This document shows, piece after piece, positions 1-62,153 of a stretch of DNA of 64,000 nucleotides. Position 1 is the stretch's first letter; every line of letters starts with the position of its first letter. Source of the stretch: Candidatus Saccharimonadota bacterium (GTDB lineage Bacteria > Patescibacteriota > Saccharimonadia > Saccharimonadales > UBA10212); contig JACOWW010000003.1 in assembly GCA_016176605.1 (NCBI GenBank), positions 30,138-94,137 on the forward strand. The letters run 5' to 3'. A program made the position numbers and the translations under genes. Below the pieces are notes generated by a model. That model made no database searches, was not told the DNA's origin, and was given only the letters and a program-made list of their open reading frames with translations.

Positions 1-1
1 C

Positions 2-1717: not shown

Positions 1718-1843
1718 TTGAGTACCAAGAAACTTGGGCTGTCCGCGCTTGATGATTTCAAGCTCTTTTACGAAGAGATTATTATCATCAAACGGACTGG
1801 CAACCGCTTAAAGCGGGTTCGCCAACCAAGCGCAGTCAGCTAA
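1718..1843 (+). CDS. Candidate 41-aa small ORF (TTG start) or small RNA unit between a promoter-like site and a terminator
   Basis: GAGGT lies 6 nt before the TTG. The ORF encodes STKKLGLSALDDFKLFYEEIIIIKRTGNRLKRVRQPSAVS with no recognisable family. TTGACA at 1664-1669 lies upstream and a terminator lies downstream. Confidence 0.2.
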   Translation: MSTKKLGLSALDDFKLFYEEIIIIKRTGNRLKRVRQPSAVS

Positions 1844-1858
1844 GGAAGAGGGTGCGAG

Positions 1859-1890
1859 AAAACCGGTCGCCACGGCAACCGGTTTTTTTA
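1859..1890 (+). terminator. Rho-independent terminator
   Basis: AACCGGT stem, 10-nt loop, ACCGGTT stem, followed by a T7 run. Confidence 0.7.
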
Positions 1891-1950
1891 TACCCAGAAT
1901 TTTAAATCTATCCACTGGCTTTTTCTTCACCATTATGTCAATATCTAGTC

Positions 1951-2376
1951 ATGGTTTGTGTGTATTGTGGGGGTGAAACAAGCGTTACTAACAGCCGTAA
2001 GCAGAAGCGGAACAACCAGGTGTGGCGCAGGCGGCAATGTAAGGCCTGTCACGCTGTTTTTACCTCCCATGAGGTCCTAAACCTGTCTTCTGCCCTAATG
2101 GTGGTCTCCGGGGGCTCTACGAAGCCCTTTTTAAGCGATATGCTTTTTACTGAGGTATTGCTGGCTCTGCAGGACCGTAAAGACTGCTACATCGCCGCCC
2201 GTGAAGTAACCTCAACTGTTATTGGCAAATTACTAAAACCACCAGCCGAACCAGTGATTGAAGCAAAACAGATCAGCCAAACAGCGGCTAAGGTGTTAAA
2301 GCGCCTCGACCGGCGGGCCTGGTTACGATATTTAGCTGAACACCCCAGCCTTCAGCAAACAGGAATTAGAAAATAG
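1951..2376 (+). CDS. nrdR: Transcriptional repressor NrdR
   Basis: N-terminal zinc ribbon (CVYCGG...RRRQCKAC..FTSHE) followed by an ATP-cone-sized region; 141 aa. Confidence 0.75.
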   Translation: MVCVYCGGETSVTNSRKQKRNNQVWRRRQCKACHAVFTSHEVLNLSSALMVVSGGSTKPFLSDMLFTEVLLALQDRKDCYIAAREVTSTVIGKLLKPPAEPVIEAKQISQTAAKVLKRLDRRAWLRYLAEHPSLQQTGIRK

Positions 2377-2424
2377 AAATTAGCGAACCTCAGTTACTAC
2401 TTCCTAATTGCTAGTTCCTAGTTT

Positions 2425-4008
2425 CTATTTTTTGACTGCCTTCTCTGTTATGATCCAGCCCAAATACCAGCCAAACATCAGCCTAGTTTGCGAGTAAATG
2501 GCGGCAAACGAACTGTAAACAATAGTGGTCAGGGGTAAATAGACCCATTGCAATACCATCCAAACGGTGCGGCGGCGCTTGTAACGCTCTGGTTTGGGCG
2601 GCAGTGAACGCATACTAAGGAATAGCGAAATCAGGATGCCGGCCACCAATATACGCTGGATCCAACTGACAATATGCGGCAACTGATTAGCCAGATAGCT
2701 TTGGGGGTTGAGTATAAAAGGCGGCCAAGCCGCCACGGCCAATATAATTGGCGTGGTTGACCAACTGATATGACTTTCCAGCAGACGAGCAAATTTGGCA
2801 ATCAGGCGCGGTTTTGGAATACGGTTTTTCTTTAGGAAACCGTTATAAAAGACGTAGGCGATGTCGGTACAACCCCAGGCCCAGCGGCGGACTTGGATAA
2901 ACTGCATCTTGAGGGTTTTTTTATAGCTATCTGTTAAAACCGCATCTTGATAGATGGGTAGGTAAATTGGATAGACCTCGTGCTGGCCGTCAAAACGGAA
3001 AAAAGTCCGCCAGTACTGGTGGCCGTCCTCGACAATAGTGCGTACGCTCCAAAAATCGGTCTTAATCAGCGCCGACATGGGCTGGGCGTGAGCCGAGAAG
3101 TTGCGCAGCATATGCGGCCGCAGTGTCAGCATGACGGTCCAAAACGAATTGGCTGTGGCTACTACCCGCATTGGCGCCGGGGCATCCCAAATGTTATTGG
3201 TGTACATAGTTATGGGCTGATAGGAGGCATATAGCGGCTTTTCGGTGGAGCAATAAGTGTAGGTCAAAGCGCCCAGATAGTTTTTATCCGGGCGGTTATC
3301 GCAGTCAAGTGTTGTAACTAAAACTCTACTCGGCCGAATTTTTCTTTCCTCCAAAAACACTTTTAGACGGCGTGCGGCAAACGTTACATTCCCGCCCTTG
3401 CCTATTACTTCTCCGGTCATTGGCCAAGGGTGCATCACGGCTTCAGCGTGATAGAAGTTTTTACCGTACTTATTAACCATTGACTGCACGAAATCTCTGA
3501 CTGCCGCGCCGCCGCGTTCTTCGTAAGCAATTATCAAGATGACTTTTTTGAGGTCATAGTGGTTTTTGGCGACTGCCGCGATGGTTGATTCTAAAACATC
3601 AAGCTCATTCCAAATAGCGACAATTACGGCGTGGTAAACTTCGCTGGGTGTGATGCGCGTGTGCAGCAGCCGGTTCCTAACCCGCTCAATGTTGCGGTGA
3701 TGCCACTGGGGGGCATGGGGCAGACTAACTTCAAGTGCTTCCAAATCCTCATTCAATTTCTGCCATGGTTGGCTTTTATAGTGACTCATGCGGTTCCACC
3801 CCTGTATGGAGCGAGCGGCGATAGCTAGGGCCCGTACGAACCAAACAAGCAGGAAAGTAATAACAAAGTAAGCGGCCGCCTTGGGATTAATTAGGCTAAG
3901 AATAATAGGTAGTGCCAGAATGGTCCAAGTCAATGCCCCGGGCAGAATTTCCAGTGTCCGGTAGCGCCAGTCGCGCTCGCCGGGCTGAGGAATTTCTATC
4001 GGTTTCAC
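2425..4008 (-). CDS. Membrane-embedded family-2 glycosyltransferase (processive beta-glycan synthase-like)
   Basis: Multi-TM 527-aa ORF with a TLDCDN (DxD) motif and a QVRRW (QxxRW) motif. Confidence 0.75.
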   Translation of the reverse strand: MKPIEIPQPGERDWRYRTLEILPGALTWTILALPIILSLINPKAAAYFVITFLLVWFVRALAIAARSIQGWNRMSHYKSQPWQKLNEDLEALEVSLPHAPQWHHRNIERVRNRLLHTRITPSEVYHAVIVAIWNELDVLESTIAAVAKNHYDLKKVILIIAYEERGGAAVRDFVQSMVNKYGKNFYHAEAVMHPWPMTGEVIGKGGNVTFAARRLKVFLEERKIRPSRVLVTTLDCDNRPDKNYLGALTYTYCSTEKPLYASYQPITMYTNNIWDAPAPMRVVATANSFWTVMLTLRPHMLRNFSAHAQPMSALIKTDFWSVRTIVEDGHQYWRTFFRFDGQHEVYPIYLPIYQDAVLTDSYKKTLKMQFIQVRRWAWGCTDIAYVFYNGFLKKNRIPKPRLIAKFARLLESHISWSTTPIILAVAAWPPFILNPQSYLANQLPHIVSWIQRILVAGILISLFLSMRSLPPKPERYKRRRTVWMVLQWVYLPLTTIVYSSFAAIYSQTRLMFGWYLGWIITEKAVKK

Positions 4009-4108
4009 CTATAAACCCCATGTTCACAGTTTTCGGTTTTCGGTTTTCTATGCGTTTTCAGTGATCTGTTTTCTGTTCTCAATGATAAATTGTAAACAGT
4101 AAACGCAC

Positions 4109-4138
4109 GGTGAATGGTGAATGGTGAACGGTGAATGG
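4109..4138. repeat. 7-nt tandem array (GGTGAAT)x4
   Basis: ggtgaatggtgaatggtgaacggtgaatgg, preceded by tgtaaacagtaaacg. (TTTTCGG)x2.7 lies at 4030-4048 in the same spacer. Confidence 0.9.
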
Positions 4139-4141
4139 ATC

Positions 4142-4498
4142 TCATTGTAATGAGATAAGGGAGTTAGCGACAATAGTCGATAAAATCAGTAAAAAGACGC
4201 TGCTTGCCAGAATAAATATAGACAGATAGCGCTTAAGGTTGTAGACGCGGGCGCTTAAGATCACCGCGCCGACAGCAGTGATAGCCATGAAAATGGCCAT
4301 GGAATAAATATCGATCGGTTTGCCGCTTTGATAGCTGGCCCCGGAAATATTCGGGCGATAAGCCACGATAGTGGTGGGGTTTTTAGAGATATCAAAACGC
4401 AGCAGTACTAACGATACACCGATGACTAATAGAACCGCTAAAAGCGTGATTAGTAGAAGGACTGCGCGATCACGTAAAAATTTCTTGGGAAGATCCAT
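4142..4498 (-). CDS. Small integral membrane protein (3 predicted TM segments), unknown function
   Basis: 118-aa hydrophobic ORF directly upstream of, and co-oriented with, the GT2 gene. Confidence 0.5.
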   Translation of the reverse strand: MDLPKKFLRDRAVLLLITLLAVLLVIGVSLVLLRFDISKNPTTIVAYRPNISGASYQSGKPIDIYSMAIFMAITAVGAVILSARVYNLKRYLSIFILASSVFLLILSTIVANSLISLQ

Positions 4499-4573
4499 CC
4501 CGTTAGAAGTCCAATTCTATGCCATAGAATTGGCAGATTTTATTTTTGATAAAATACTTACTTCTAACAGGAT
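4497..4573 (-). repeat. Start-abutting inverted-repeat cassette (ATCCCGTTAGAAGT ... ACTTCTAACAGGAT)
   Basis: Arms at 4497-4510 and 4560-4573. The proximal arm overlaps the ATG of the 4142-4498 gene. The interior holds the perfect hairpin ccaattctatg-g-catagaattgg. Confidence 0.75.
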
Positions 4574-4690
4574 CCATACAAATTTAGTGCCTAAATTTTT
4601 AGTCGATAGTTATTAGTCATTAGTCGTCAGCATTTATTTTACACTTTTTCTGAAAGCATGGTTCACCATGAGTGAGCGGGGCGAGTTGAA

Positions 4691-4764
4691 TGGTGCGGGA
4701 TACGAGAATCTAACTCGTACCTCTTGCTTGGGAAGCAAGTGTACTGACACTATACTAATCCCGC
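4691..4764 (-). tRNA. tRNA-Gly (anticodon CCC)
   Basis: Manual cloverleaf: acceptor GCGGGAT/ATCCCGC, anticodon stem CTTGC/GCAAG with loop TTCCCAA, T stem ACGAG/CTCGT, encoded CCA. Confidence 0.85.
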
Positions 4765-4893
4765 CTGGTCTAAATCAATTTTGTGAAAACACTCTAGTAG
4801 CAGGTTTTTGCAAAATTGAGAGGAGCGCTCGTAGCGCTAGGCCGAAGCTTTTGCCGCTTAGGCTAAACAAGGCTAGCGCGTAAGTTGCGACGA

Positions 4894-4969
4894 TGGAGCC
4901 GGAGATGGGACTCGAACCCACGACTTGCTCGTTACGAGTGAGCTACTCTACCAGCTGAGTTACTCCGGC
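4894..4969 (-). tRNA. tRNA-Thr (anticodon CGT)
   Basis: Manual cloverleaf: acceptor GCCGGAG/CTCCGGC, D arm ACTC..GAGT, anticodon loop CTCGTAA, T arm GTGGG-TTCGAGT-CCCAT, encoded CCA. Confidence 0.8.
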
Positions 4970-5117
4970 ATTTATCCCACACCTTTTCAAGGCGTTTCGT
5001 AATCTGATTGCAGACTACTCCACCCTAAAAAGGTAAGGGATTCCGCGCGCACTTTAAACTTTTTACAGATGAGCACTTCACAGATTGAGTATAACAAAGT
5101 AAGATGATTGCCAGTGA

Positions 5118-5225
5118 ATCCCGTTAGAACCTCACCCTTGGCTTATGATATTTTTAAAACGCTGGCTGCTCGAAACAGCTCCAACGCAATGCGAACTTTA
5201 GAATTGCAGGCTGAGGTCTAAGGGG
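5118..5225 (+). repeat. Start-abutting inverted-repeat cassette (ATCCCGTTAGAACCTCA ... TGAGGTCTAAGGGG)
   Basis: Arms at 5118-5134 and 5212-5225. The proximal arm ends at the G of the pyrH GTG start. Confidence 0.7.
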
Positions 5226-5914
5226 TGGAATTTAAACGAGTACTTTTGAAGTTGTCGGGGGAGCAGTTTGCCGGTGGGCAAAGTTTTGGTATTAGTTCAG
5301 ACTTCATTAACGAGCTGGCAAAAGACATAAAAGCCATAGCCGATCTAGGTGTACAGGTTGCAGTGGTTGTCGGCGGTGGTAATTTTATGCGCGGCGCGGA
5401 TATATCGAAAAACGGAGTAGAACGGGCCACCGGCGACTATATGGGGATGCTGGCAACAGTTTTAAACGGTATGGCGTTGGTGGATACACTGGAAGCTAGC
5501 GGCCAGCCGGCTCGCCTGCAAACTCGATTGCGCGTGGATAGTGTCGCCGAACCCTACATCCGTCGGCGGGCTATTCGCCATATGGAAAAGGGACGGATTG
5601 TAATTATCGCCGGCGGTACTGGCAATCCTTATGTCACAACCGACACCGCGGCAGTCACCGCGGCGCTGGAGCTGGACTGCGACGTGGTTCTAAAAGCTAC
5701 CAAGGTGGACGGCGTCTATGATAAAGATCCTACCAAGCATAAAGAAGCTAAAAAACATACTTCTTTGTCTCATGCCGAGGCACTGCAAAACCCCCATATA
5801 GCTGTTATGGATAACGCCGCGATATCTCTGGCCATGGATCATAAATTACCAATAATAGTTTTTAAATTATCGAAAGAAAATCTTAAAAAAGTTAGGGGCT
5901 GCGCAGAGATTTGA
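5225..5914 (+). CDS. pyrH: UMP kinase
   Basis: VLLKLSGE, VVVGGGNFMRG, GTGNPYVTTDTAA and ATKVDGVYDKDP motifs. GTG start. Confidence 0.9.
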   Translation: MEFKRVLLKLSGEQFAGGQSFGISSDFINELAKDIKAIADLGVQVAVVVGGGNFMRGADISKNGVERATGDYMGMLATVLNGMALVDTLEASGQPARLQTRLRVDSVAEPYIRRRAIRHMEKGRIVIIAGGTGNPYVTTDTAAVTAALELDCDVVLKATKVDGVYDKDPTKHKEAKKHTSLSHAEALQNPHIAVMDNAAISLAMDHKLPIIVFKLSKENLKKVRGCAEI

Positions 5915-6065
5915 TGACTTCTTTAATACCTAGTACCGACAAAACTCTAAAGAAATCCGTCTCATCCTGCCACAGCGTTTCTGCTGCTTTCCTTAATTTT
6001 TCGTTCATTTTTGTTTCCCTTTCTATTTTTTGATCGTAAGACGGGCGAGGTCAAAAATAGATCGT

Positions 6066-6344
6066 CTATACGGTAAGTTCATTCAGACCGGTAAAGCCTA
6101 AACGTCTTAACCTTTTTTCGGCCTTCTTGGTTAAATCGCGATCTATTGCAAGTTCGCCGTATTTGCCGCGAGGCGTGTTTTCTATACCGCCGTCATCAAC
6201 GCTGTGACCAGTTTTAATTAGGGTCCTGTAGGCAACATCTAACTCTGGTCTATCAAATCCTGGTCTAGTAAGTCCAATATGGGGGCCGTCGCCACGAACG
6301 TGATCATCCCAGACATCCCGAGATAAATCAAAATTTGTGCTCAT
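6066..6344 (-). CDS. Hypothetical protein (92 aa)
   Basis: ORF only. A possible 38-aa ORF follows on the same strand (6008 down to 5892, AAGGGA SD). Confidence 0.35.
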   Translation of the reverse strand: MSTNFDLSRDVWDDHVRGDGPHIGLTRPGFDRPELDVAYRTLIKTGHSVDDGGIENTPRGKYGELAIDRDLTKKAEKRLRRLGFTGLNELTV

Positions 6345-6479
6345 ATAAATTCCTCTTTATTTAATACTTATAAATCGATAATGCTCCCGCTTTCTTGTAT
6401 TGTCAAGTGCCTGAGTATTCCGTTTTCACCCCAGTTTTGCTAAACTACATCTGTTCTAGACACTGCCAAAGCAGGACGC

Positions 6480-6557
6480 GGGGCGGTAGAACAGCCTGGA
6501 GTGTTCGTCTCCCTGTCACGGAGAAGGTCGCGGGTTCAAATCCCGTCCGCCCCGCCA
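6480..6557 (+). tRNA. tRNA-Asp (anticodon GTC)
   Basis: Acceptor GGGGCGG/CCGCCCC, anticodon stem TCTCC/GGAGA with loop CTGTCAC, T arm GCGGG-TTCAAAT-CCCGT, discriminator G, encoded CCA. Confidence 0.9.
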
Positions 6558-6561
6558 CATA

Positions 6562-6590
6562 TTGACTTTTTATGTAGTCTGTGCTAATAT
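6562..6590 (+). promoter_or_regulatory. Sigma70-like promoter driving a probably leaderless mRNA
   Basis: TTGACT (6562-6567), 17-nt spacer, TAATAT (6585-6590). The ATG at 6598 is only 7 nt downstream and there is no SD. Confidence 0.6.
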
Positions 6591-6597
6591 AAACAAC

Positions 6598-7110
6598 ATG
6601 AGCAGTCCTCAAGAACTTACCTCGCCTTCTTCATCTGAATACGATAGACTACTTTCAGGTAGTCAAGAACGTCTTGCTAGTTCTATGGCTTCCATACAAA
6701 GAATACTAGAGGAGTATGGATTAAAAGAAGTAAATGAACGTCAAAGACTAGGACACGGCGTAGAGATTGAACCTCTTAAAACTGATGAAATGAACGGTAT
6801 TAGGGTAACTGCTGAGCATTATGAGGGTATAGTTGGCACGGATGAAACCTCATGGGTGCGTATAACTTTACCCGAGGATGGAGAACCTTTATTTGAGAAA
6901 GCTTATGAAATCTCAGCACTCGATAAACCCCAGTGGAAAACTGTAGGAGTAATGGACCCAAGGCTTAGAAAAGACTATGACGCCTACAATCAAGGACTAA
7001 TTGCTGATGACATCTTAATAAGCCTAAAACGTATCTATGAGCCTGAACCTGCCAAACCAATACCATCTAGAATTAGAAAGGTAGCTGCTAGGCTAATTGA
7101 TAGAGGCTAA
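6598..7110 (+). CDS. Hypothetical protein (170 aa from the ATG)
   Basis: ORF track 6562-7110. The TTG at 6562 lies within the promoter, 5 nt after the tRNA end, so the ATG at 6598 is preferred. Confidence 0.5.
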   Translation: MSSPQELTSPSSSEYDRLLSGSQERLASSMASIQRILEEYGLKEVNERQRLGHGVEIEPLKTDEMNGIRVTAEHYEGIVGTDETSWVRITLPEDGEPLFEKAYEISALDKPQWKTVGVMDPRLRKDYDAYNQGLIADDILISLKRIYEPEPAKPIPSRIRKVAARLIDRG

Positions 7111-7216
7111 GCCTCTTATCGCAAAATAGTTCTAGACCCGTATGTCCCACCACGTTTTTTGCCTATTGTTTTTTGCTTATTACTCTTTTGTTTATTGTTC
7201 TTTGTTCTCCGCTTTT

Positions 7217-7250
7217 TGTTCTTTGTTCAGAATTTGACGTAGGTTTTGAC
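7217..7250. repeat. 34-bp direct repeat, copy A (duplicate of the PPIase gene 3' end)
   Basis: 32/34 identical to 8028-8061. The reverse strand still reads VKTYVKF-stop and both differences are synonymous. Confidence 0.85.
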
Positions 7251-7327
7251 CAGCTAAGAGAAGTTAACCCGTCCAAAAATTAAGTTAAACATTTGACAAG
7301 AAGTGTCCATTAAGTTAAACTTAAGCT

Positions 7328-7612
7328 ATGGATATAATCACTACCAGAGAATTAAGAGAAAACATGGCGGCCGTTATCCGCGACTTAAAAAGAGGTAAAG
7401 CAGTCCAGCTAAGTTACCGCCATAGAGTCATTGGCACGCTACAACCTTCGCCGCCGGCCCCGATGCCCCTCCGACAAGGTTCGCCTGAAGCAGTACGAAA
7501 TTTCCTGGAGACGGCTGATTTTGGCCCGATTCCTTCAAAATTACGGACTGACCACCGAAGCTTTAAGCAGCAAGTTGCTGAGTTGCGTAAACAAGATCTT
7601 CAATCGAAGTGA
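7328..7612 (+). CDS. Phd/YefM-type antitoxin
   Basis: N-terminus MDIITTRELRENMAAVIRDLKRGKAVQLSYRHRVIG. 4-nt overlap with the downstream PIN gene. TTAAGTTAAAC direct repeats (7280-7290, 7310-7320) flank TTGACA at 7293. Confidence 0.65.
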   Translation: MDIITTRELRENMAAVIRDLKRGKAVQLSYRHRVIGTLQPSPPAPMPLRQGSPEAVRNFLETADFGPIPSKLRTDHRSFKQQVAELRKQDLQSK

Positions 7613-7983
7613 TTTGTCTGGACGCCAACGTACTAATAGAAATTGTCCTTGGGCGTAAAAATGCCGAAGTTTGTCAGGCGTATTTAGACTCGGCGCGAGA
7701 AGATTTAGCCATAACCCTGCTGAGTTTGGATCTGGCAATGTATTACGCTGAAGCTCACAAGCTGGCCTTTCAACCCATTGAACAGTTTATGCGGCTGTTT
7801 ATCTGGTTACCAATGATTGACGCCGACGCTCAGTGGGCCTTTGAACACTTTGCCGGTAAAGATTACGAAGACGCATTGCAGGTTGCAGCTGCATCCCGCG
7901 AAGGCTGCAGTCGGTTTGTGACTTTAGATCGTAATTTAGCCAAGAAATATCCAAAGAATATTGCGATAGACCTGCTGGCGTAA
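7609..7983 (+). CDS. vapC: PIN-domain toxin (VapC-like)
   Basis: MICLDANVLIEI... N-terminus and TLDRNL near the C-terminus; 124 aa; coupled to the upstream antitoxin. Confidence 0.75.
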   Translation: MICLDANVLIEIVLGRKNAEVCQAYLDSAREDLAITLLSLDLAMYYAEAHKLAFQPIEQFMRLFIWLPMIDADAQWAFEHFAGKDYEDALQVAAASREGCSRFVTLDRNLAKKYPKNIAIDLLA

Positions 7984-8027
7984 TCTGGCATTATACGGGT
8001 CTATTCTTGAAATACTTTTTTTCCTAG

Positions 8028-10633: not shown

Positions 10634-11575
10634 ATGGGTTATGAAAATGCAGTTAGTCAGTTTCTGGAATATTTAGAGCTGGAGCAAAACCGCTCGCAAA
10701 AAACGATTGAGAATTATAGTCACTACCTGACCCGACTCAGTGATTTTGCCGGCGACATCAAGCTTAAAGACATTAACGAGCAACTAATCCGTAAATGGCG
10801 CCTTTGGCTAAACCGTTTAGGTACAAATACATCCGATGAACTGTCCAAAACAACCCAAAATTATCATTTAATCGCTCTGCGCAGTTTTTTACGTTTTTGT
10901 GCCAAGCGTGAACTGCCTGCCCTGGCGCCGGACAAGATTGAACTGGCGCGCACCAAACGGCCGCAGGTGACTTTTTTAAACCTTGAGGAAATCGAAAGAT
11001 TATTTGCCCAACCAGACACTACAAAATTAACGGGTATAAGAGACCGGGCAATTTTGGAGCTATTGTTTTCCAGCGGCCTGCGAGTTTCCGAACTGGTCGG
11101 GCTGGACCGTGATCATATTAATTTAAGGCGGCGCGAGTTTATGGTGCGCGGCAAAGGCCAAAAAGACCGGCCGATTTTTATCAGCCCGGAAGCGGCCGAG
11201 TGGATACAGCGCTACCTGGACAAGCGCCAAGATAATACCAAACCGCTATTTATCAGATACAGTGGCAGTAAAAAAGTCGATTTAAGCGGCAATTATCATC
11301 GTTTGACTGCCCGCAGCATGCAAAGGATGGTCGCCCGCTATGCCTTAGCTGCCGGAATCACTAAACACGTCAGCCCGCACACGATGCGCCACAGCATGGC
11401 AACCGACTTATTGATGAACGGGGCAGATCTTCGCTCAGTCCAAGCCATGCTTGGCCACTCCAACATCGCCACCACCCAAATCTACACCCATGTCACCGAC
11501 CCCCATCTTAAAGCAGTGCATGAGAAATTCCACCGGCGGGTACCGGCTGGTACCCGCCACCGCGCCAAGAAATAG
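10634..11575 (+). CDS. Tyrosine site-specific recombinase (XerC/XerD family)
   Basis: SAM-like N-domain. Catalytic region RVSELVGL...HTMRHSMATDLL...LGHSNIATTQIYTHV. TACAAT lies 6 nt upstream of the ATG. Confidence 0.85.
   Translation: MGYENAVSQFLEYLELEQNRSQKTIENYSHYLTRLSDFAGDIKLKDINEQLIRKWRLWLNRLGTNTSDELSKTTQNYHLIALRSFLRFCAKRELPALAPDKIELARTKRPQVTFLNLEEIERLFAQPDTTKLTGIRDRAILELLFSSGLRVSELVGLDRDHINLRRREFMVRGKGQKDRPIFISPEAAEWIQRYLDKRQDNTKPLFIRYSGSKKVDLSGNYHRLTARSMQRMVARYALAAGITKHVSPHTMRHSMATDLLMNGADLRSVQAMLGHSNIATTQIYTHVTDPHLKAVHEKFHRRVPAGTRHRAKK
11530..11563. repeat. 34-bp hairpin-forming repeat, copy 1 (inside the recombinase 3' end)
   Basis: CCACCGGCGGGTACCGGCTGGTACCCGCCACCGC. The 10-bp stem is GGCGGGTACC/GGTACCCGCC. 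33/34 identical to 11777-11810. Confidence 0.85.
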
Positions 11576-11593
11576 CAATCCAGCCGATGTATA

Positions 11594-11711
11594 ACAAAAA
11601 TACGCGATCGCATATTTTTGTGTCATATCGTAACTGAATGCATATCACGACAGTAAAATAAAAACAGATCAAATCGCAGTGTAACAAAAATCAGCGATCG
11701 CTGATTTTTGT
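11594..11711. repeat. Two 28-bp palindromes centred on GCGATCGC
   Basis: acaaaaatacGCGATCGCatatttttgt (11594-11621) and the perfect palindrome acaaaaatcaGCGATCGCtgatttttgt (11684-11711). Confidence 0.85.
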
Positions 11712-11776
11712 TATGCATGTTGTATATTGTATATGCATGTAGGGGTTAATTTTGTCAGGGCGGACATGAAAAAAAT

Positions 11777-35018: not shown

Positions 35019-36824
35019 TTAGGCGTCCATCGAGGCGACACGGTTAATTTCCAGGAGTGTGGTCATGGCCGCCAAAGCTTTCAAATAGCCGTCCTGGCGC
35101 ATGGTTACCATGCCTTGGCTAATGGCTACCTGCTGGATCTGCGAGCTTGTAGCGCGTTTTAGAATTGTGTTCTGTATCCCCTCAGTAACTTCAAAGACCT
35201 CATAAAGTCCCATGCGGCCTTTGAAACCAGACTTGTTATCGGGCGTCGGTTTACCCTTGACCAAAGTATAAGCGTTTTGACCAGCCAGAGGCAAGTTTCT
35301 ATATCCTAGGTCCCGGCCCACTGCCTCGACTTCTTGCGGATTCTTGGGCAGTAAGTGTCCAATATTTTCCTGTATGGCTTTAGTTTCACTTGGCGTGGAG
35401 CTATAGGTCTCGCCACCTGGGACAACTCGCCTTGCCAGGCGCTGACCAATAACCGTGTGTACTGTGCTGGCGATTAGAAACGGCTCGACGGCCATGTCCA
35501 AAAGGCGCGGTAAAATACCGGCCGCGGTGTTAGTGTGCAGAGTCGAAAACACCAGATGGCCAGTCAGTGCGGCCTGGACCGCCAGGTTAGCCGTTTCCTT
35601 ATCGCGGATTTCACCAACCATAACCACATCGGGGTCTTGGCGCAGTATCGAACGCAGGCCAGTGGCAAAGGTTAGGCCAACGTCAGGGTTGACCTGGATT
35701 TGGTTAACCCCCTCAATCTTATACTCAACCGGGTCTTCCAGTGTCACTATATTAATACTGTCAGTCTTAATAGCCTGGATCATGGCGTACATTGATGTGG
35801 TCTTACCCGATCCGGTCGGGCCGGATGTCAATATCATGCCATAAGGCATTTGCAGCGCTTTTTTAACCAGTCTTAGCGCCCGGCCGTTATAGCCCATCTC
35901 TTCAAGTTGTAAACTGGTATCTGACTTATCAAGCAGCCTAATAACTACCTGTTCACCCCAGATAACAGGGCTAATAGTAATACGCAGGTCAATGTTACGG
36001 CCATCAGCTTTTACCGTAAACTGGCCATCTTGCGGTATGCGATGTTCGTCGATTTTCAAATTGGATAAAATTTTTATACGGCTTATTAGCGGCGCCTCGG
36101 CGCTTTTCGGCAGTTTCAACACTTCTTTTAATACACCGTCTACGCGGCAACGGATTTTGAGCTCATGCTCCAAAGCCTCAATGTGGACGTCACTGGCATT
36201 ATTCTTGGCCGCGTACTCTAAAATGGCGGACAATGCCTGGCTAATCGGCGAATCTTGGACGATCGTCTGGACTTTGCCTTCTTTATCAACTGCTGCCGGC
36301 GCCCCTTTAACGGCCCCCAAATTTTTATTTTCCTCTAGAGCGTTGGCGTTTAGCATTGAAGTCAGTCCACCGACAAGACCGCTGTTACCGTATTGCTCGA
36401 TCACTTTCCTAATACCAGCCTCGCTGGCGGCGTAGACCTTAAGCGGCCGGCCAATACGTTTACTCAAAAAATCTACCGCTTGGACATTGTCGGCGTCGAG
36501 CATAGCTACGACCAGCTTATTTTGCATCTCGCCTATTGGTACGGCCATATAATGTTCGGCCAGGTCCTGGGGCAGTAGGCCCAGTATTTTGGGGTCTATC
36601 CTGGTGTTAGTTAAGCTGACATAAGGCACGTTAGAAACGCCGGCCAGTATCTTTGTTAAGCGTTCGTCATCTAGTAAGCCTTGCTCCAGTAGCAGGGTTA
36701 TCAACGGTTTTTTAGTGGCCAGTGCTTTCTTTTTGAAATCCTCAATCTGGACCTCGGTCAAAATACCCTCGTTAATTAACGAATCTTCTACTTTCTCCTG
36801 GCTTGTCGCTGATAAAACATTCAT
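35019..36824 (-). CDS. pilB: Type IV pilus assembly ATPase (GspE/PilB family)
   Basis: T2SS-E N-domain. GPTGSGKTTSMYAMI, LEDPVEY, ILRQDPDVVMVGEIRD, GHLVFSTLHT. Confidence 0.9.
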   Translation of the reverse strand: MNVLSATSQEKVEDSLINEGILTEVQIEDFKKKALATKKPLITLLLEQGLLDDERLTKILAGVSNVPYVSLTNTRIDPKILGLLPQDLAEHYMAVPIGEMQNKLVVAMLDADNVQAVDFLSKRIGRPLKVYAASEAGIRKVIEQYGNSGLVGGLTSMLNANALEENKNLGAVKGAPAAVDKEGKVQTIVQDSPISQALSAILEYAAKNNASDVHIEALEHELKIRCRVDGVLKEVLKLPKSAEAPLISRIKILSNLKIDEHRIPQDGQFTVKADGRNIDLRITISPVIWGEQVVIRLLDKSDTSLQLEEMGYNGRALRLVKKALQMPYGMILTSGPTGSGKTTSMYAMIQAIKTDSINIVTLEDPVEYKIEGVNQIQVNPDVGLTFATGLRSILRQDPDVVMVGEIRDKETANLAVQAALTGHLVFSTLHTNTAAGILPRLLDMAVEPFLIASTVHTVIGQRLARRVVPGGETYSSTPSETKAIQENIGHLLPKNPQEVEAVGRDLGYRNLPLAGQNAYTLVKGKPTPDNKSGFKGRMGLYEVFEVTEGIQNTILKRATSSQIQQVAISQGMVTMRQDGYLKALAAMTTLLEINRVASMDA

Positions 36825-36924
36825 CCCGTTAGAGCCTCTGAGTACTTACTGCTAGATTGAGCTACGATAAATACGCAAATTATATTTATCACGAAATTAG
36901 CACCTGTAAAGGCTCTAACGGGAT
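36823..36924 (-). repeat. Start-abutting inverted-repeat cassette (ATCCCGTTAGAGCC ... GGCTCTAACGGGAT)
   Basis: Arms at 36823-36836 and 36911-36924. The proximal arm overlaps the pilB ATG. The interior contains TTTACA..TATAAT-like hexamers. Confidence 0.8.
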
Positions 36925-36949
36925 TCACCGCAGGCCTCCCGGGAGACCG

Positions 36950-37080
36950 TTAGCCATTATCCATTTACCATTTTCTGTGCATTTACCATTAGCCATTAAC
37001 CATTTGTTAACAGTAAACGGGTAACGCATGGTGAAGGGTGAATGGTGAAGGGTGAACGTTTTTTGAGCATTGAGCATTTG
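36950..37080. repeat. Composite spacer element: CCATTNN heptads, then GTTAACAGTAAACGGGTAACGCATGG, then (GGTGAAG/GGTGAAT)x4, then (GAGCATT)x2
   Basis: Read directly. The core GTAAACGGRTAACGCRTGGTGAAGGGTGAA recurs at 39004-39035, with a shorter form at 4097-4125. Confidence 0.85.
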
Positions 37081-38880: not shown

Positions 38881-39052
38881 TAACCATTTTCCATTTACTA
38901 TTTACCATACATTTACCATACATTTACCATTAGCCATTAGCCATATGTTAACGGTAAACCCAGCACTTAGCTTAAGTATCTTAGAGACTCGAGCTAAGTG
39001 CTGGGTAAACGGATAACGCGTGGTGAAGGGTGAAGGGTGAAGGGTGAAGAGT
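38881..39052. repeat. Composite spacer element: CCATTTN/TTTACCA heptads, central 15-bp inverted repeat, (GGTGAAG)x4
   Basis: Central arms ACCCAGCACTTAGCT (38958-38972) and AGCTAAGTGCTGGGT (38992-39006). GGTGAAG array at 39021-39050. Confidence 0.85.
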
Positions 39053-39069: not shown

Positions 39070-40107
39070 CTAGTCTCTTTCCGCCATTCCTACGGCCACG
39101 GCAAAGTGGTTAGATTGCGCTAGCAGCTCGTTTTGTTTATCAACCGGCACGCTTACGTTGCGCCAGGAATTACCGATTTCTACGTTCAGGCCAAACTTAT
39201 TAGCAATGTAAAGCGGCAGTTCAGGCAGCACCGAGGCGGCACCAGTAACAATAATGCGGTCAATTTTGGCCGCTCCGTAGCGGCCGTGGAAGAACTGGAT
39301 GGACTTTTCAATTTCATTCATCAAGCCGTCGATAGTCGGCAAGATTGCTTGGTAGATTTGGCCTTCCAGCTTATCGCGGCCCAGGCCAAACTTCATGACG
39401 TACTGCGTTGCTTGCGCGGCGTCAATACCCGGCTGCTGCATGGCGGCGCGGATGATAGCCTGCAGACCTGTAGAGATAGAGCGTGTTAGACGTGGTACAC
39501 CGCTAATCACAATAACAAGGTCAGTTGTGGTATTACCAATGTCCAGTACCATCTGCGGCAGGGCTACTTCCGGGGATGTCAATGAGCGCGCCAGCGCCAT
39601 GCTGTCGGATTCCATAGCAATTGCGTTAAGCCCGGCAGCTTCTAGAATTTCCAGCCGGTCCTCGATAAAATTGTTTGGCACGCTGGAAAGCAAGACTTCA
39701 ATCTTCTTAGGGTCTATCGGCGAATCGCCAATCACCAAAAAATCCACCTTAGACTGGGCTATAGGCGTCGGTATTATCGAGTCGGCTTGGTAGCGGATAG
39801 TTTTTGCTAAGTCGGCTTCCATTATTCTGTCTAGATCTACCGTGGTAGTAAAGACTTTTTGCGAAGGCAAGTTAACGGCCACGTTTTTTGTGTCTATGCC
39901 GGATTGTTTAATCAATTCCCTGATTGCCTGGGATACTTTTTGGCGGTCCAGTGCCGAATCACTCAGGGCAGCTGTACCCTCTATCGGCATGTAACTATAA
40001 TGCGCCAGGGCTTTTACCTGCCCCCCGCCTTTTAGTTCTACGGCCCTTAGGGCGCTGGTTCCAATATCAAGGCCAAAAAAATCTGATTGCCCACTCAATA
40101 TGCCCAT
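39070..40107 (-). CDS. pilM: Type IV pilus assembly ATPase-fold protein PilM
   Basis: FGLDIGTSALRAVELK actin-like phosphate-1 motif; 345 aa; precedes pilN/pilO. Confidence 0.8.
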   Translation of the reverse strand: MGILSGQSDFFGLDIGTSALRAVELKGGGQVKALAHYSYMPIEGTAALSDSALDRQKVSQAIRELIKQSGIDTKNVAVNLPSQKVFTTTVDLDRIMEADLAKTIRYQADSIIPTPIAQSKVDFLVIGDSPIDPKKIEVLLSSVPNNFIEDRLEILEAAGLNAIAMESDSMALARSLTSPEVALPQMVLDIGNTTTDLVIVISGVPRLTRSISTGLQAIIRAAMQQPGIDAAQATQYVMKFGLGRDKLEGQIYQAILPTIDGLMNEIEKSIQFFHGRYGAAKIDRIIVTGAASVLPELPLYIANKFGLNVEIGNSWRNVSVPVDKQNELLAQSNHFAVAVGMAERD

Positions 40108-40211
40108 CCCGTTAGATCTCGCTCAACTTTCTATTTTTGGTTATCGTTTGAAGAGCTAACACGTGTTCAATCGTATAACAGTTCTCGGCCGCTTTTTGAG
40201 ATCTAACGGGA
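40106..40211 (-). repeat. Start-abutting inverted-repeat cassette (ATCCCGTTAGATCTC ... GAGATCTAACGGGA)
   Basis: Arms at 40106-40120 and 40198-40211. The proximal arm overlaps the pilM ATG. Confidence 0.8.
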
Positions 40212-40282
40212 CCCATACTTGCTCAAAGTATAGCATAAGGGTTATAACAAGAAACAGAGCCAAAACATTAAATTTTGAGTAT

Positions 40283-46971: not shown

Positions 46972-47079
46972 ATCCCGTTAGACTTCAAAAGAGTTACAAT
47001 ATTAAGCTGTGTGTAGAAGCAAGCAAACGCGTCCAATCGTCATAATTGGCACGGAAATTAGGTGAGGTCTAATCGGGAT
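46972..47079 (+). repeat. Orphan copy of the inverted-repeat cassette (ATCCCGTTAGACTTC ... GAGGTCTAATCGGGAT)
   Basis: Arms at 46972-46986 and 47064-47079. The right arm again ends in ATG, but only a 10-codon ORF follows. Lies between convergent genes. Confidence 0.65.
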
Positions 47080-47935: not shown

Positions 47936-49090
47936 ATGTCGCTTCAAATAGGAATCATCGGCCTTCCTAACGTAGGTAAATCCACGCTTTTTAACGCGTT
48001 GACGGATGCGGACGCGTTGATTGCTAATTACCCTTTTGCCACTATTGAGCCAAACACTGGAATTGTTCCCATCCCGGATCCGCGCTTGCCGAAGCTGGCA
48101 GAAATTTATAAAACCCAAAAAATTATTCCTGCGACTGTCACTTTTGTCGACATTGCCGGCTTAGTGGCCGGCGCCAGTAAAGGCGAAGGCTTGGGCAACC
48201 AATTTTTAGCGCACATCCGAAGCACTAATGCCATTTGCCACGTGGTACGGGCCTTTGATGATCCTAATGTTGCCAGTGCAAAAAACCCCGACGCTGCGGT
48301 CGGGGCTCCGACCACCGATCTAGTAGTCGGTGCATCGGAGGATATAGAAATTGTCAACACGGAACTAGTCTTAGCCGATCTGCAAACAGTCGAAAAACGT
48401 CTGCCACGCCTGGAAAAAGAAGTTAAAGCCGATCCCAAACTCAAGCCCTTACTCGACGCCCTAAATGCCATCAACTCCCATCTTCAAACCAACTCACCCC
48501 TGCATAGTTCTCAAGTTCTGCAGAACATTAGAACAAGTGAGGTCCAATCGGCGCTGCTTGACAGTTTGCAGTTGCTGACGGCCAAGCCAGTCATTTATGT
48601 TTTTAATGTCGACGAAACGTTGCTGGAGGGTCGTACCCTTAGACCTAAGGGTACGACCCTAAAGGAGTTAACTGAGCTGGTTGCGCCATCCAGGGCCATA
48701 TTTATTTGCGCGAAACTAGAAAACGAACTGCGTGGAATGGGTGAAGCCGACCGCCAGGAACTGCTAGAAAGCTACGGCCAAAACGAGAGCGGCCTGATGC
48801 AGTTAATCCATGCGGCGTATGACATATTGAACTTGCAAAGTTTTTTGACGGCTGGTGAAAAGGAAGTGCGGGCCTGGACTATACCCAAAGGCACTACTGC
48901 CCCGCAAGCCGCCGGTGTTATACACAGCGATTTTGAACACGGCTTTATTGCCGCCCAAGTCGTCAACTACCAAGATTTAATAAAAGCCGGCTCATTAGCC
49001 GGCGCGCGGGCCGCCGGCAAAGTACGTGCCGAAGGCAAAACCTACGTTATGCAACCTGATGACGTGGTCGAGTTCCGTTTCAACGTCTAA
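47936..49090 (+). CDS. ychF: Ribosome-binding ATPase YchF (Obg-like)
   Basis: IGIIGLPNVGKSTLFNALT, FVDIAGLV.GAS.GEGLGNQFL, C-terminal TGS-like AAGVIHSDFEHGFIAAQV. Confidence 0.9.
   Translation: MSLQIGIIGLPNVGKSTLFNALTDADALIANYPFATIEPNTGIVPIPDPRLPKLAEIYKTQKIIPATVTFVDIAGLVAGASKGEGLGNQFLAHIRSTNAICHVVRAFDDPNVASAKNPDAAVGAPTTDLVVGASEDIEIVNTELVLADLQTVEKRLPRLEKEVKADPKLKPLLDALNAINSHLQTNSPLHSSQVLQNIRTSEVQSALLDSLQLLTAKPVIYVFNVDETLLEGRTLRPKGTTLKELTELVAPSRAIFICAKLENELRGMGEADRQELLESYGQNESGLMQLIHAAYDILNLQSFLTAGEKEVRAWTIPKGTTAPQAAGVIHSDFEHGFIAAQVVNYQDLIKAGSLAGARAAGKVRAEGKTYVMQPDDVVEFRFNV
48627..48667. repeat. Palindromic element embedded in frame in ychF (15-bp arms AGGGTCGTACCCTTA / TAAGGGTACGACCCT, 4-nt spacer, then AAAGGAG)
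   Basis: Same element as 993-1040. Translates to EGRTLRPKGTTLKE here. Confidence 0.8.
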
Positions 49091-49196: not shown

Positions 49197-49814
49197 TTAG
49201 ATCAACCCGCAGTACCTGGCCGTATTCGGCCACGGGTAGTAGCCTCGTCCGTTCCTGCGGGCGTACTCCGCCACAATGATCTGCTCGCGCGGAGTCCAAC
49301 GATCAGCGGTCCCCTTAGCTGCGTGTAGTGCCGACCACGACTTAAAGCCGAGTGCGGGCGGCCCATAGGTGCTTTGGAACTCCAGATCCATCTGGAGCCC
49401 ACCGTCATACGTGCCGTTGTGTCCAGGAGCGTCTTTGTCATAGTGCCAGGTCGCTTCATATCTGTGGATACACGACCAAGCTGGTATGTCGCCCATCAGA
49501 TTAGTGCGAATGAGCTTGTTCGTCTCACCGATTTCTCGACGGAGCCAGCGCTCCTGCTTAATATGCCACCAGAGCGCATAGGCGGCTGTGCCAAGTGGCG
49601 GCCTACGCAACTGAAGTAGCCGGAAACTGCGCCTAGCAAACCAAAACTGCGTCTGGCTGGTATGCTTGAGCACGTGCTTCTGGAGCTCCAGCCGCTTAAG
49701 CAGTGGTGTCTCAGCGGTGATTCTTACACGATGCGCCGTTGCCGGCGTCGAGAAAATCAGCCCCACCGTAACTACTGCAAAGCCAACAACTAACAGACGT
49801 TTGAGGTTGGGCAT
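49197..49814 (-). CDS. Secreted transglycosylase-like (Rpf-type) protein
   Basis: Signal peptide MPNLKRLLVVGFAVVTVGLIFSTPATA after a GGAGGG SD (start 49814). WSCIHRYE..GTYDGGLQMDLEFQ resembles the Rpf/transglycosylase-like motif. Confidence 0.5.
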   Translation of the reverse strand: MPNLKRLLVVGFAVVTVGLIFSTPATAHRVRITAETPLLKRLELQKHVLKHTSQTQFWFARRSFRLLQLRRPPLGTAAYALWWHIKQERWLRREIGETNKLIRTNLMGDIPAWSCIHRYEATWHYDKDAPGHNGTYDGGLQMDLEFQSTYGPPALGFKSWSALHAAKGTADRWTPREQIIVAEYARRNGRGYYPWPNTARYCGLI

Positions 49815-50045
49815 CTTCGGCTGCCCTCCTTCGATTTCGATGTACGATAAGCCCACTGCGGGCTCATCTATTAAAATCGCCAGTTTGTAAGCCATCCTCG
49901 CCGCGATAGTTACCCATCGCTGACTAGGCTTAAAGTCTGAGCCTATCAAATTGGCGTACATCCCGCTAAAGGCGGAACGTACTCTTTGATAGACATATGT
50001 TCAGACCGGTCTGGCGACCGTCTTTCCTATTATACCACAAGTGCT

Positions 50046-61256: not shown

Positions 61257-61859
61257 CTAGCTTAGTGTTTTTATAATTTTGGCTTCTTGATTAATTTTCT
61301 TTAAAATAGCTGGGATTTTCATAAAATCGTCAATTAATGTCTGGCGCATGCTTCCGTTGTATAAGGCAGCTGCGGGGTGGAAGAGCGGAAGGTAGACTTG
61401 CCCTTGGTATCTTTTTGGCTGACCGTGGCATTTACTTATTTGCAGGCCCGGCAAGAAGCATTCCATACTATGACGGCCAAGAGTCACCACGATTTTTGGC
61501 TTGATGGCTTCCAGCTGGGCGCGCAAAAATGGTAAAAAGGTAGCTTTCTCGTCCGGGTACGGGTCGCGATTATCTGGAGGGCGGTATTTAACAATATTGG
61601 TGATATAAACATCCTTCCTTTTCAGCCCGATCATAGCCAGCATTTCATTCAAAAACTGGCCGGCGGCGCCGACGAATGGCAGTCCTTGCTCATCTTCACT
61701 CTTACCCGGCGCCTCACCTATAAAAACCAGCTCCGCTTTGGCGCTGCCATCGCCAAACACTAATTGTATTGCGCTAGCAGCTAGTTCCGGACAAATGTTT
61801 TGCTTCAAAATCTCAGCCTTGATTTTCTTTAGTTGTGCTTCTTTTTTACTCATTCTCAC
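61257..61859 (-). CDS. Family-4 uracil-DNA glycosylase
   Basis: FIGEAPGKSEDEQGLPFVGAAGQFL and HPAAALY. Confidence 0.85.
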   Translation of the reverse strand: MRMSKKEAQLKKIKAEILKQNICPELAASAIQLVFGDGSAKAELVFIGEAPGKSEDEQGLPFVGAAGQFLNEMLAMIGLKRKDVYITNIVKYRPPDNRDPYPDEKATFLPFLRAQLEAIKPKIVVTLGRHSMECFLPGLQISKCHGQPKRYQGQVYLPLFHPAAALYNGSMRQTLIDDFMKIPAILKKINQEAKIIKTLS

Positions 61860-61916
61860 CCCCTAGAGGTCCGACCTTGGAAAAAGCAAAGAGATTTTAT
61901 GCAAAATCACCAGATT

Positions 61917-62153
61917 TTACCTACCTTTTTCCAAGGTCGGACCTCTTTTTAGTACACGGAACGTGCTTTTGATTCCCCACACCAGGAAAATGATTGCCAG
62001 AGCGTATTCCAGCAGGCTGCCTGAGTCAATCGCCAAGCTGGCAAAACCGTAAGCAATACCAAGGAAAATTAAGGCCATAGTGACTCTCACCCACCGCTTA
62101 TTAAGTAACCTCTGTTCGTCTTTCCTAGCCATTTTTACCTTCTTCGCCCGCAA
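61917..62153 (-). CDS. Small membrane protein (78 aa, 2 TM segments)
   Basis: ORF with a GAAGG SD and two hydrophobic helices. Confidence 0.4.
   Translation of the reverse strand: MRAKKVKMARKDEQRLLNKRWVRVTMALIFLGIAYGFASLAIDSGSLLEYALAIIFLVWGIKSTFRVLKRGPTLEKGR

Follow-up and report, generated by a model that had tools for sequence, protein, structure and literature searches.

Paired Palindromic Arms at Gene Starts

The stretch of DNA considered here (the window) comprises 64,000 nucleotides (nt) of contig JACOWW010000003.1 (positions 30,138 to 94,137 of the forward strand; assembly GCA_016176605.1), from a Candidatus Saccharimonadota bacterium, and carries among its genes pilB, pilM, pyrH and a glycosyltransferase operon headed by an open reading frame (ORF) of 118 amino acids (aa). 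Each of these four starts is preceded by the same kind of inverted repeat, and a fifth copy lies between two convergent ORFs (Table 1). All five loci, which an earlier note made from the letters of the window had listed, were recovered with the pattern (T)CCCGTTAGA...TCTAACGGG(A), and the family of small palindromic mobile elements to which they belong is real, widespread and, it appears, so far undescribed. The element is about 85-115 bp long, inserts at the start codon of a gene and duplicates it.

In four of the five loci the arm nearer to the gene (the proximal arm) meets the start codon directly, as the earlier note had described, abutting ORFs 4142-4498 (minus strand), 5225-5914 (plus strand; the GTG of pyrH), 35019-36824 (minus strand; pilB) and 39070-40107 (minus strand; pilM); the pilB start agrees with an independent gene call in a public collection. 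The exact 9-mer CCCGTTAGA occurs seven times on both strands of the window, with about 0.5 occurrences expected (an estimate). The arms of the pyrH and orphan copies carry an insertion or deletion of 1-2 nt, and the orphan lacks the flanking direct repeat described below and is followed only by a 10-codon ORF. The interiors are unrelated, as the note had also said, and only the ends are common. Across the family, 73-110 nt separate the arm cores, which leaves an ORF of only 3-39 codons with a non-conserved peptide, and copies can be dense, with 5 in the 64 kb of the window and up to 7 in 8 kb elsewhere (locus L079).

Table 1. Positions of the five copies in the window and of their parts (minus-strand features are read from the higher to the lower coordinate).
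Feature	Position	Strand	Description	Basis
pilB copy, whole unit	36821..36928	-		sequence, ORF translation, fold
pilB copy, distal start	36928-36923	-	GTGAAT	
pilB copy, upstream ORF	36928-36821	-	35 codons plus TGA overlapping the main start as ATGA; VNPVRAFTG...EALTG, stop	
pilB copy, regenerated start	36824-36822	-	ATG	
pilB copy, proximal arm	36823..36837	-	AGGCTCTAACGGGAT (minus strand); 15 nt, 100% complementary to the distal arm; includes A and T of the pilB ATG	repeat search
pilB copy, distal arm	36910..36924	-	ATCCCGTTAGAGCCT (minus strand); 15 nt	repeat search
Shine-Dalgarno sequence	36935..36939	-	GGAGG, 6 nt upstream of the distal GTG; native pilB ribosome-binding site	
pilM copy, whole unit	40105..40216	-	distal ATGGGT 40216-40211; pilM ATG 40107-40105	
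pilM copy, arms	40198-40211 and 40107-40120	-	14 nt, 100%	repeat search
pilM copy, upstream ORF	40216-40112	-	34 codons; stop TAA 40114-40112, 4 nt ahead of the start	
118-aa ORF copy (head of glycosyltransferase operon), whole unit	4496..4577	-	distal ATGGAT 4577-4572; main ATG 4498-4496	
118-aa ORF copy, arms	4560-4573 and 4497-4510	-	14 nt, 93%; one U-G pair	repeat search
118-aa ORF copy, upstream ORF	4577-4503	-	24 codons; stop TAA 4505-4503	
pyrH copy, whole unit	5114..5227	+	distal GTGAAT 5114-5119; pyrH GTG 5225-5227	
pyrH copy, arms	left 5120-5136; right about 5209-5224	+	two 1-nt deletions; right arm holds Shine-Dalgarno-like GAGG	
pyrH copy, upstream ORF	5114-5221	+	35 codons; stop TAA 5219-5221, 3 nt ahead of the start	
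Orphan or decayed copy	46972..47079	.	between two convergent ORFs; 1-nt arm insertion	

Duplication of the Start Codon

Further copies were sought in 185,579 species-representative genomes with the pattern CCCGTTAGA-N55-85-TCTAACGGGAT, for which about 34 matches are expected by chance across the whole collection (an estimate); the matches listed comprise at least 120 loci, designated here by L and a number. With the copies oriented towards their gene, a logo built from the flanks of 91 of them revealed a feature that the earlier note had overlooked, a direct repeat of the start codon. The six bases of the distal flank read A-T-G-R-R-T (A in 75, T in 69, G in 65 and the last T in 88 of the 91), and the dinucleotide that follows the distal ATG recurs after the proximal ATG in 62 of 69 copies, where shuffling gives a mean of 26 and none of 10,000 shuffles reaches 62. 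This matched repeat identifies the loci as insertions with a target-site duplication.

The general architecture is ATGnn-T-CCCGTTAGA...TCTAACGGG-ATGnn-gene, in which the start codon plus two bases is directly repeated outside the inverted arms; in the window, the repeated pairs are GTGAAT/ATGAAT (pilB), ATGGGT/ATGGGC (pilM), ATGGAT/ATGGAT (118-aa ORF) and GTGAAT/GTGGAA (pyrH). The repeat measures 2-4 nt if it is read as TGnn, or 3-5 nt if it is read as ATGnn; its nn is purine-purine in about 92% of copies, and the left repeat is preceded by A or G. In the simplest reading, a 4-bp duplication, TGnn, brackets the unit T-CCCGTTAGA...TCTAACGGG-A, which is the element itself and whose terminal A rebuilds the ATG. 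The insertion target lies between the A and the TGRR of ATGRR, most often the start codon and the first two bases of codon 2. The earlier note had counted the AT of the ATG as part of the palindrome, which holds for the A, a constant member of the stem, whereas the T pairs only if an A precedes the T of the distal arm.

Empty Sites, Subfamilies and Repeated Insertion

Filled and empty forms of the same site can be compared directly. Locus L095 reads ..AGGAGaaataataATGAAT-element-ATGAACAAAGAAGAA, and its 86%-identical orthologue in L012 is empty and reads AAGGAGagtttATGAATAAAGAAGAA; other element-free orthologues have plain leaderless starts (TATAAT-N6-7-ATG) or starts with a Shine-Dalgarno (SD) sequence. 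Among 80 pilB orthologues from JGI metagenomes (64-92% aa identity), the element is present only in the window, L126, L132 and L137, and the element-free orthologues consist of the stop codon of the upstream gene, 10-30 nt with an SD sequence and then the ATG. The filled pilB loci fall in at least two separate clades, with L137 as sister to the empty L129 (in a neighbour-joining tree without support values), which indicates either repeated insertion at the same ATGAAT or precise loss. Likewise, the gene for SSB carries the element in L060 and L090 and lacks it in the window.

Near-identical copies can be compared in L079 (DAIDBF010000005.1, positions 1-8000; metagenome-assembled genome (MAG) 'bacterium isolate clean1859'), where seven elements, belonging to three arm variants, are spread over a ribosomal-protein operon. 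Pfam matches give the operon as L4, L23, L2, S19, L22, S3, L16, L14, L24 and S8, and the elements stand exactly at the starts of L2, S19, L24 and S8 and of three ORFs taken as L29, S17 and L6 from operon order, the distal duplicated ATG lying at the native stop-start junction. Four of these copies, within 8 kb, form a sister family with ends TCCCGCACCTTTAGAGGAC that are 80-98% identical to one another, and their ATGAG or ATGAA repeats match within each copy and differ between the near-identical copies 2 and 3, so that the repeat must have been created at insertion, as a target-site duplication. A model of the HUH/IS200 type, with a copy of the target brought along by the element itself, was rejected because of the same pair of copies.

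The same architecture occurs with other arm variants (TCCCGCACCTTCT, TCCCTCACATAAC and TCCCGTTAAAT), and multi-copy families are also found in L089 and L103. Interiors are shared within subfamilies (80-98% in L079, 79% in L089, and also in L103 and among L030, L032, L087 and L038); most copies from different genomes share the ends only. Tandem elements in L010 and L090 share one repeat. Tandem or nested arrangements, with a shared ATGAAT repeat or one element within another, were noticed at L010:7674-7895, L090:6504-6720, L013:4621-4788 and L033:1446-1636, and they show repeated hits on the duplicated target.

Initiation Signals at the Distal Start and the Upstream Frame

Recognisable initiation signals stand ahead of the distal start, either a -10 hexamer 6-8 nt upstream of it (e.g., in L006, L011, L027, L030, L048, L074, L087, L093 and L108) or an SD sequence 4-8 nt upstream (L095, L051, L004, L045, L055 and the window pilB copy), and within operons some distal starts fall at a stop-start junction, where the preceding gene ends (ctggTAAcATGAGT). 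The SD sequence before the distal start is kept in all four filled pilB loci, whose interiors are unrelated, and its context is the same in empty and filled orthologues; in the window, the native GGAGG of pilB is now split from the pilB ORF by the inserted element. The puzzle posed by the earlier note, that the proximal arm leaves no room for an SD sequence, is resolved by these signals, and the statement is superseded, since the SD sequence or promoter sits upstream of the distal duplicated start.

Many first genes of the window have a -10-like hexamer 6-8 nt before the ATG and appear to be leaderless, and operon-internal genes have AGGAGG, a pattern in keeping with a Patescibacteria-like organism. 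Starts of the leaderless type include 10634 (11575 side), 30719, 41383 and 42905 (43294 side), as well as the empty orthologues in L021, L032, L095, L097 and L102. Runs of the repeat (A/T)AATGG / ATGGTAAATGG occur at 36940-37010, upstream of pilB, and at 38923-39041, between pilM and pilN; similar repeats precede pilB in the distant orthologues L135 and L142, and they may be a conserved regulatory feature of the pilus operon.

The distance from the distal to the proximal start is unevenly distributed modulo 3 (remainder 1 in 36 copies, 2 in 24 and 0 in 12; chi-square p of about 0.003, an estimate), and the spacing peaks at 76, 100 and 103 nt all correspond to a start-to-start remainder of 1. 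The suggestion that the spacing approximates 10 helical turns does not hold, because it follows codon phase instead. Among copies with remainder 1, the ORF opened by the distal start remains open across the whole insert in 21 of 36 (5.5 in shuffles; 2 and 4 of 36 in the other frames) and ends at the TAA of the proximal arm (TC-TAA-CGGG-ATG). With remainder 2, the frame is open in 8 of 24 interiors and closes with an ATGA overlap, and a single one of the 12 in-frame copies is open. The upstream ORF is open in all four gene-linked copies of the window (24, 35, 35 and 34 codons; per-copy chance 0.11-0.23, product about 6e-4), and a stop near or overlapping the downstream start is present in 30 of 75 family members, compared with about 10 expected by chance.

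The pilB copies of the window and L126 probably stem from one insertion, as suggested by their shared rare distal GTGAAT and similar upstream flanks (46 matches vs 38 in shuffles). Both upstream ORFs are open, in different frames and encoding unrelated peptides, and the conserved trait is the openness of the upstream ORF and not its peptide.

Stem Covariation and Predicted Folds

Covariation was measured in 92 family members. The helix is formed by a T-A pair, nine invariant pairs and three further pairs, after which pairing decays; the invariance of the nine arm pairs was a requirement of the search itself. Outside the core, the three further pairs keep their complementarity in about 89-97% of copies, include all four Watson-Crick types and show 23-42 double substitutions each, with a covariation score of 0.247 vs 0.087 in shuffles (none of 500 reaching it), and the compensatory stem extension that the earlier note had read from the window copies is thus found in other copies too. 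The arms of the window and L126 pilB copies themselves differ by compensatory changes (GTTAGAGCC/GGCTCTAAC vs GTTACATCC/GGATGTAAC). Isolated G-U pairs outnumber A-C mismatches on the sense strand (13 vs 6), a weak hint that pairing matters in the mRNA.

In three copies the long-range stem is the predicted minimum-energy RNA fold (-31.7, -43.9 and -35.6 kcal/mol; z -5.9, -5.9 and -3.8), the pilB copy giving -43.9 kcal/mol (z -5.9); weaker folds are predicted for the pyrH and orphan copies. The proximal arm and the start codon lie within a stable predicted hairpin, which bears out the idea of start-codon occlusion put forward in the note. The promoter-like hexamers seen in the interiors are not above chance: a consensus scan for an internal promoter performed at chance level, its sole match being antisense, and no positional signal appeared in 91 aligned interiors.

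About a quarter of the members contain a third, partial copy of the proximal arm, (T)AGCGGGAT / AACGGGAT, in direct orientation 10-20 nt after the distal arm (e.g., L002, L015, L040, L046 and L100), and its pairing with the distal arm could give an alternative short hairpin; of 89 copies, 23 contain CGGG in the first half of the interior and 2 contain CCCG there.

Distribution and Downstream Genes

Roughly 70% of the listed loci, counted from record titles, belong to Patescibacteria, the Candidate Phyla Radiation (CPR), and cover Saccharibacteria, Paceibacterota, Nomura-, Kerfeld-, Levyi-, Doudna-, Kaiser-, Zambryski-, Sungii-, Campbell- and Brennerbacteria, and Kazan. The remaining listed loci come from Planctomycetota, Omnitrophota and a few Desulfobacterota, Nitrospirota and 'Gammaproteobacteria' MAGs. 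The element subfamily closest to the window copies, together with a few best protein matches, comes from Saccharibacteria/Patescibacteria MAGs. Carriage by phages was considered and discarded, since IMG/VR gives only 4 matches. The genes that follow the element are unrelated: 87 downstream proteins match 138 Pfam families, including aminoacyl-tRNA synthetases, ATP synthase, SSB and glycosyltransferases.

In two Omnitrophota loci (L022:139-219 and L103:142-1557), the element is reversed relative to the gene and lies at GTAAA/TTTAC within the coding sequence of a prepilin leader. The insert appears to be read in frame and to regenerate ...LTG/FTLIE, so that prepilin peptidase could remove it with the leader; L103 has three such copies ahead of neighbouring pilin-like genes, about 80% identical by eye. 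The flank class GTAAAC/ATAAAT, considered as a different element, proved to be the same target reversed, which in a few Omnitrophota copies lies within the coding sequence of a prepilin leader.

With Rfam 15, the window yields only four tRNAs at the gathering threshold, and the region 36700-37050 gives no match at E<=10. No description of the element was found in the literature searched by sequence and by concept, which agrees with the statement of the earlier note that no element of this architecture was known to it.

Proposed Mechanism

The copies combine insertion at a start-codon target and duplication of that target with native signals at the distal start, an upstream ORF that is open more often than expected and a covarying stem. 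The resulting order is (native promoter/SD)-ATGnn-(T CCCGTTAGA - 55-90 nt - TCTAACGGG A)-TGnn-gene, in which the original, distal start keeps its native initiation signals and opens a short upstream ORF into the element. The two distinctive traits are the targeting of the start codon and an arrangement that looks like translational coupling. Insertion would probably leave the gene working through read-through from the old start, followed by a hand-over of the ribosome to the rebuilt one. In the mRNA, the arms would form a 13-bp stem in which the start-codon A and the 12 nt that precede the real start are hidden, and ribosomes initiating at the distal start would melt this stem. In about 40% of the copies, including all four gene-linked ones of the window, the whole insert would be translated up to a stop at the arm TAA or the ATGA overlap, and since this stop lies 3-4 nt before the rebuilt start or overlaps it, reinitiation could take place there, as in translational coupling. 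In the remaining copies, where the ORF stops earlier, translation would merely unmask the start. Expression would remain dependent on the native signals, and this would account for the tolerance of the element ahead of essential genes.

We regard as the likely joint explanation that the loci are small, non-autonomous elements resembling MITEs (miniature transposable elements with inverted repeats), inserted at start codons and tolerated through ribosome hand-over. Several observations weigh against it. On the side of mobility, the five window copies have no interior sequence in common; about 10% of copies have a register shortened by 1-2 nt, so that the repeat is not of fixed length; and no autonomous version was found when about 0.9 Mb of fetched loci was scanned for pairs of matching ends 0.15-5 kb apart, which returned only cross-pairs of neighbouring small elements. 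The 64-kb window likewise encodes no transposase, only an Xer-like recombinase (10634-11575). Termini identical over 10 nt across phyla, together with covarying but otherwise free positions 11-13, exceed what transposase binding alone would lead one to expect, identical termini across phyla being unusual for MITEs, and gene starts are over-represented, by a rough estimate, beyond a 5-nt target preference combined with purifying selection. On the side of the hand-over, whose RNA-level steps are inferred from sequence, the upstream ORF stops early in 43 of 75 copies. Compensation of these early-stop copies by an SD sequence in the proximal arm is unsupported, as they are not enriched for it (5 of 43 vs 12 of 30 others), and termination-reinitiation cannot be the whole story. 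An autonomous parent would carry TCCCGTTAGA or TCCCGCACC ends; IS1380 is an insertion sequence with 'CC' ends and 4-5 bp repeats.

A bolder form of this explanation, which we hold to be rather improbable, takes the elements not as passively filtered MITEs but as a system spanning phyla, with integration machinery that actively seeks out the starts of translation or transcription. The conserved 13-bp stem and the duplicated start would form a dedicated hand-over device (shunt, bypass or obligatory reinitiation), making insertion at the first codons of essential genes silent. Such a system would be a bacterial counterpart of the internal eliminated sequence (IES) and 'byp' parasites, harmless once neutralised, and possibly exploited by the host for coupling.

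Alternative Explanations

No rival explanation covers all three of the main features, namely the duplication, the empty sites and the constraint on the ORF. The one that deserves most attention, although its probability is low, is a host-selected translational regulator, in which leader ORF and hairpin act as an attenuator-like switch (in the style of erm/cat leaders or of an RNA thermometer), either exapted or never selfish; it is compatible with a mobile origin. Arms and pairing are kept while interiors drift to near-randomness (window vs L126; L045 vs L055), the stem covaries, and the third CGGG(AT) copy carried by about a quarter of members, with its bias of 23 CGGG vs 2 CCCG, could serve an alternative hairpin, all of which would suit a regulator. 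However, the downstream genes have no common function, the peptides are not conserved, the register varies, orthologues commonly lack the element, and the near-identical multi-copy families are transposon-like. A processing stalk of the RNase III type, proposed in the earlier note, would be cut in the stem to release a leaderless or nearly leaderless mRNA from the proximal ATG. The many leaderless starts of this organism and its relatives (-10 box 6-8 nt before the ATG) and the stable predicted stems of a defined 13-bp length (a regular helix) fit this idea, and the Correia elements of Neisseria are RNase III substrates. It is nevertheless unlikely: RNase III usually prefers roughly two helical turns, a length of which the 13-bp stem falls short, and processing leaves unexplained the retention of the distal SD sequence and start, the matched repeat, the open ORF and the codon-phase lengths.

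Joined, the two ends would give a lox/dif-like sequence, TCTAACGGG-ATGAAT-CCCGTTAGA, the exact junction present in the L010 and L090 tandems, and inverted arms flanking directly repeated 5-6 nt 'spacers', an Xer-like tyrosine recombinase in the window and the possibly precise loss in L129 would all suit a site-specific recombination switch, with the arms as half-sites, ATGnn as crossover and the insert excised (attL x attR) or inverted. We give this switch even less credence than RNase III processing, as the half-sites on the host side show no conservation, about 100 bp of loop leaves very little length for synapsis, spacers in direct orientation would lead to excision and not inversion, the only other assembly of the locus has the identical orientation, and neither stem covariation at non-contact positions nor the ORF constraint is explained. 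An inverton in particular was rejected, given that shared orientation, the lack of a promoter signal and flanks that are direct and not inverted. A hand-over without termination, in which the initiator or dipeptidyl-tRNA would leave the distal AUGnn and land across the hairpin at its proximal match, as in the bypassing of T4 gene 60 or of mitochondrial 'byp' elements, is very improbable. Its take-off and landing sequences do match and flank a stable predicted hairpin, many upstream ORFs stop no more than a few codons from the distal arm, and copies with neither a full-length ORF nor an SD sequence still precede essential genes; but the gaps, at 80-110 nt, have double the length of the one in gene 60, codon 2 often specifies another amino acid through its third base (AAT/AAA/AAG), and bypass would make selection for full-length open ORFs unnecessary. 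Paired operator sites, which the earlier note had also entertained, would serve a DNA-looping transcription factor; in their favour, inverted pairs of a conserved 10-bp sequence are found near gene starts at spacings of 75-105 bp. This is the least credible of the readings: the downstream genes are unrelated and there is no regulon, the same sequence recurs in at least five phylum-level groups, non-conserved positions covary, and duplication and empty sites are left unexplained.

If the mobile-element and hand-over explanation is true, a mobile element has adapted to the start codon, among the most dangerous sites in a gene, and has done so in the tiny, streamlined genomes of CPR/Patescibacteria, ahead of genes for ribosomal proteins, aminoacyl-tRNA synthetases, ATP synthase, SSB and pili. 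It would be a natural experiment on initiation without an adjacent SD sequence, relevant to reinitiation, 70S scanning and leaderless starts, and a compact, portable 'coupling cassette' testable in genetically tractable Saccharibacteria. Starts, 5' untranslated regions and 'intergenic' hairpins may be misread in thousands of MAGs if the element is ignored, and the identical termini across phyla point to a horizontally spreading transposition system.

Other Repeats in the Window

ORF 49197-49961 begins TTTAGCGGG-ATG (49959-49972), like a lone proximal arm without its distal partner; the site forms a small local hairpin (CCGC-CTTTA-GCGG) and may be a remnant. At 61865-61946, 5 nt upstream of the ORF of a family-4 uracil-DNA glycosylase (61257-61859), the 22-nt arms of a perfect inverted repeat, AGAGGTCCGACCTTGGAAAAAG, enclose an A/T-rich loop of 38 nt; the arm sequence is different and no flanking direct repeat was seen, and the repeat may be a regulator or a further hairpin element. 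Another family of small palindromes, CTAAGGGTCGTACCCTTAG, is present at 993-1041, 1113-1130 and 48627-48660, two of these sites lying within the ORF of the TGT gene (469-1590). The Xer-like tyrosine recombinase (313 aa) is followed, in the region 10634-11720, by nested inverted repeats holding the three GCGATCGC sites of the window (11604, 11694 and 11909), which could be dif-like or a mobile-element junction; a cyanobacterial HIP1 context was rejected, as GCGATCGC occurs only these 3 times and all in one spot.

Comparison with Known Systems

The bacterial MITEs and palindromic elements (Correia/NEMIS of Neisseria, ERIC/IRU, RUP, Nezha and MITEAba12) resemble the present family in measuring about 100 bp, in having terminal inverted repeats, a short flanking direct repeat and no coding capacity for a transposase, and in showing many copies per genome, orthologous presence or absence and co-transcribed hairpins. 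To our knowledge, none of them is similar to it in sequence. They differ in that the element described here targets the start codon (between A and TGRR) and rebuilds the ATG with its terminal A, has identical termini across several phyla with mostly unrelated interiors, has a stop codon built into its terminus and retains an upstream ORF that is open. The Rickettsia palindromic elements are likewise selfish palindromic DNA tolerated in expressed genes and harmlessly translated, a likeness extended by the Omnitrophota copies that appear to be in frame in a prepilin leader (L022 and L103), although those elements lie in frame within the protein, whereas here the insert usually precedes codon 2 and is read as a separate small ORF.

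Integron attC sites are similar in size (57-141 bp), in their imperfect inverted repeats with conserved ends and variable interiors and in their position just upstream of ORFs, and the arm hexamers GTTAGA/TCTAAC fit the attC core-site consensus GTTRRRY/RYYYAAC. An identity with attC was rejected because the core-site polarity is reversed, the hexamers reading GTTAGA...TCTAAC on both strands (GTT...AAC here vs AAC...GTT in attC); moreover, the family has no extrahelical bases and no integrase or array context, and it has a target duplication. The IESs of Paramecium and the mitochondrial 'byp' elements are also short, single-copy inserts with decayed interiors, in which terminal signals and a flanking repeat are conserved because the host gene needs the insert neutralised, but they are removed from the DNA (IESs) or skipped by the ribosome (byp), whereas read-through and reinitiation, in bacteria, are proposed here. 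Similar to the proposed function are the translationally coupled systems (the IF3-L35-L20 operon, the coat-replicase pair of RNA phages and the erm/cat leaders), in which an upstream ORF with initiation signals of its own also overlaps one strand of a hairpin whose other strand hides the next start, with a stop-start distance of 3-4 nt or an ATGA overlap; in the present family, the predicted coupling would be delivered by a mobile insertion at dozens of unrelated genes and would involve no conserved stalling peptide.

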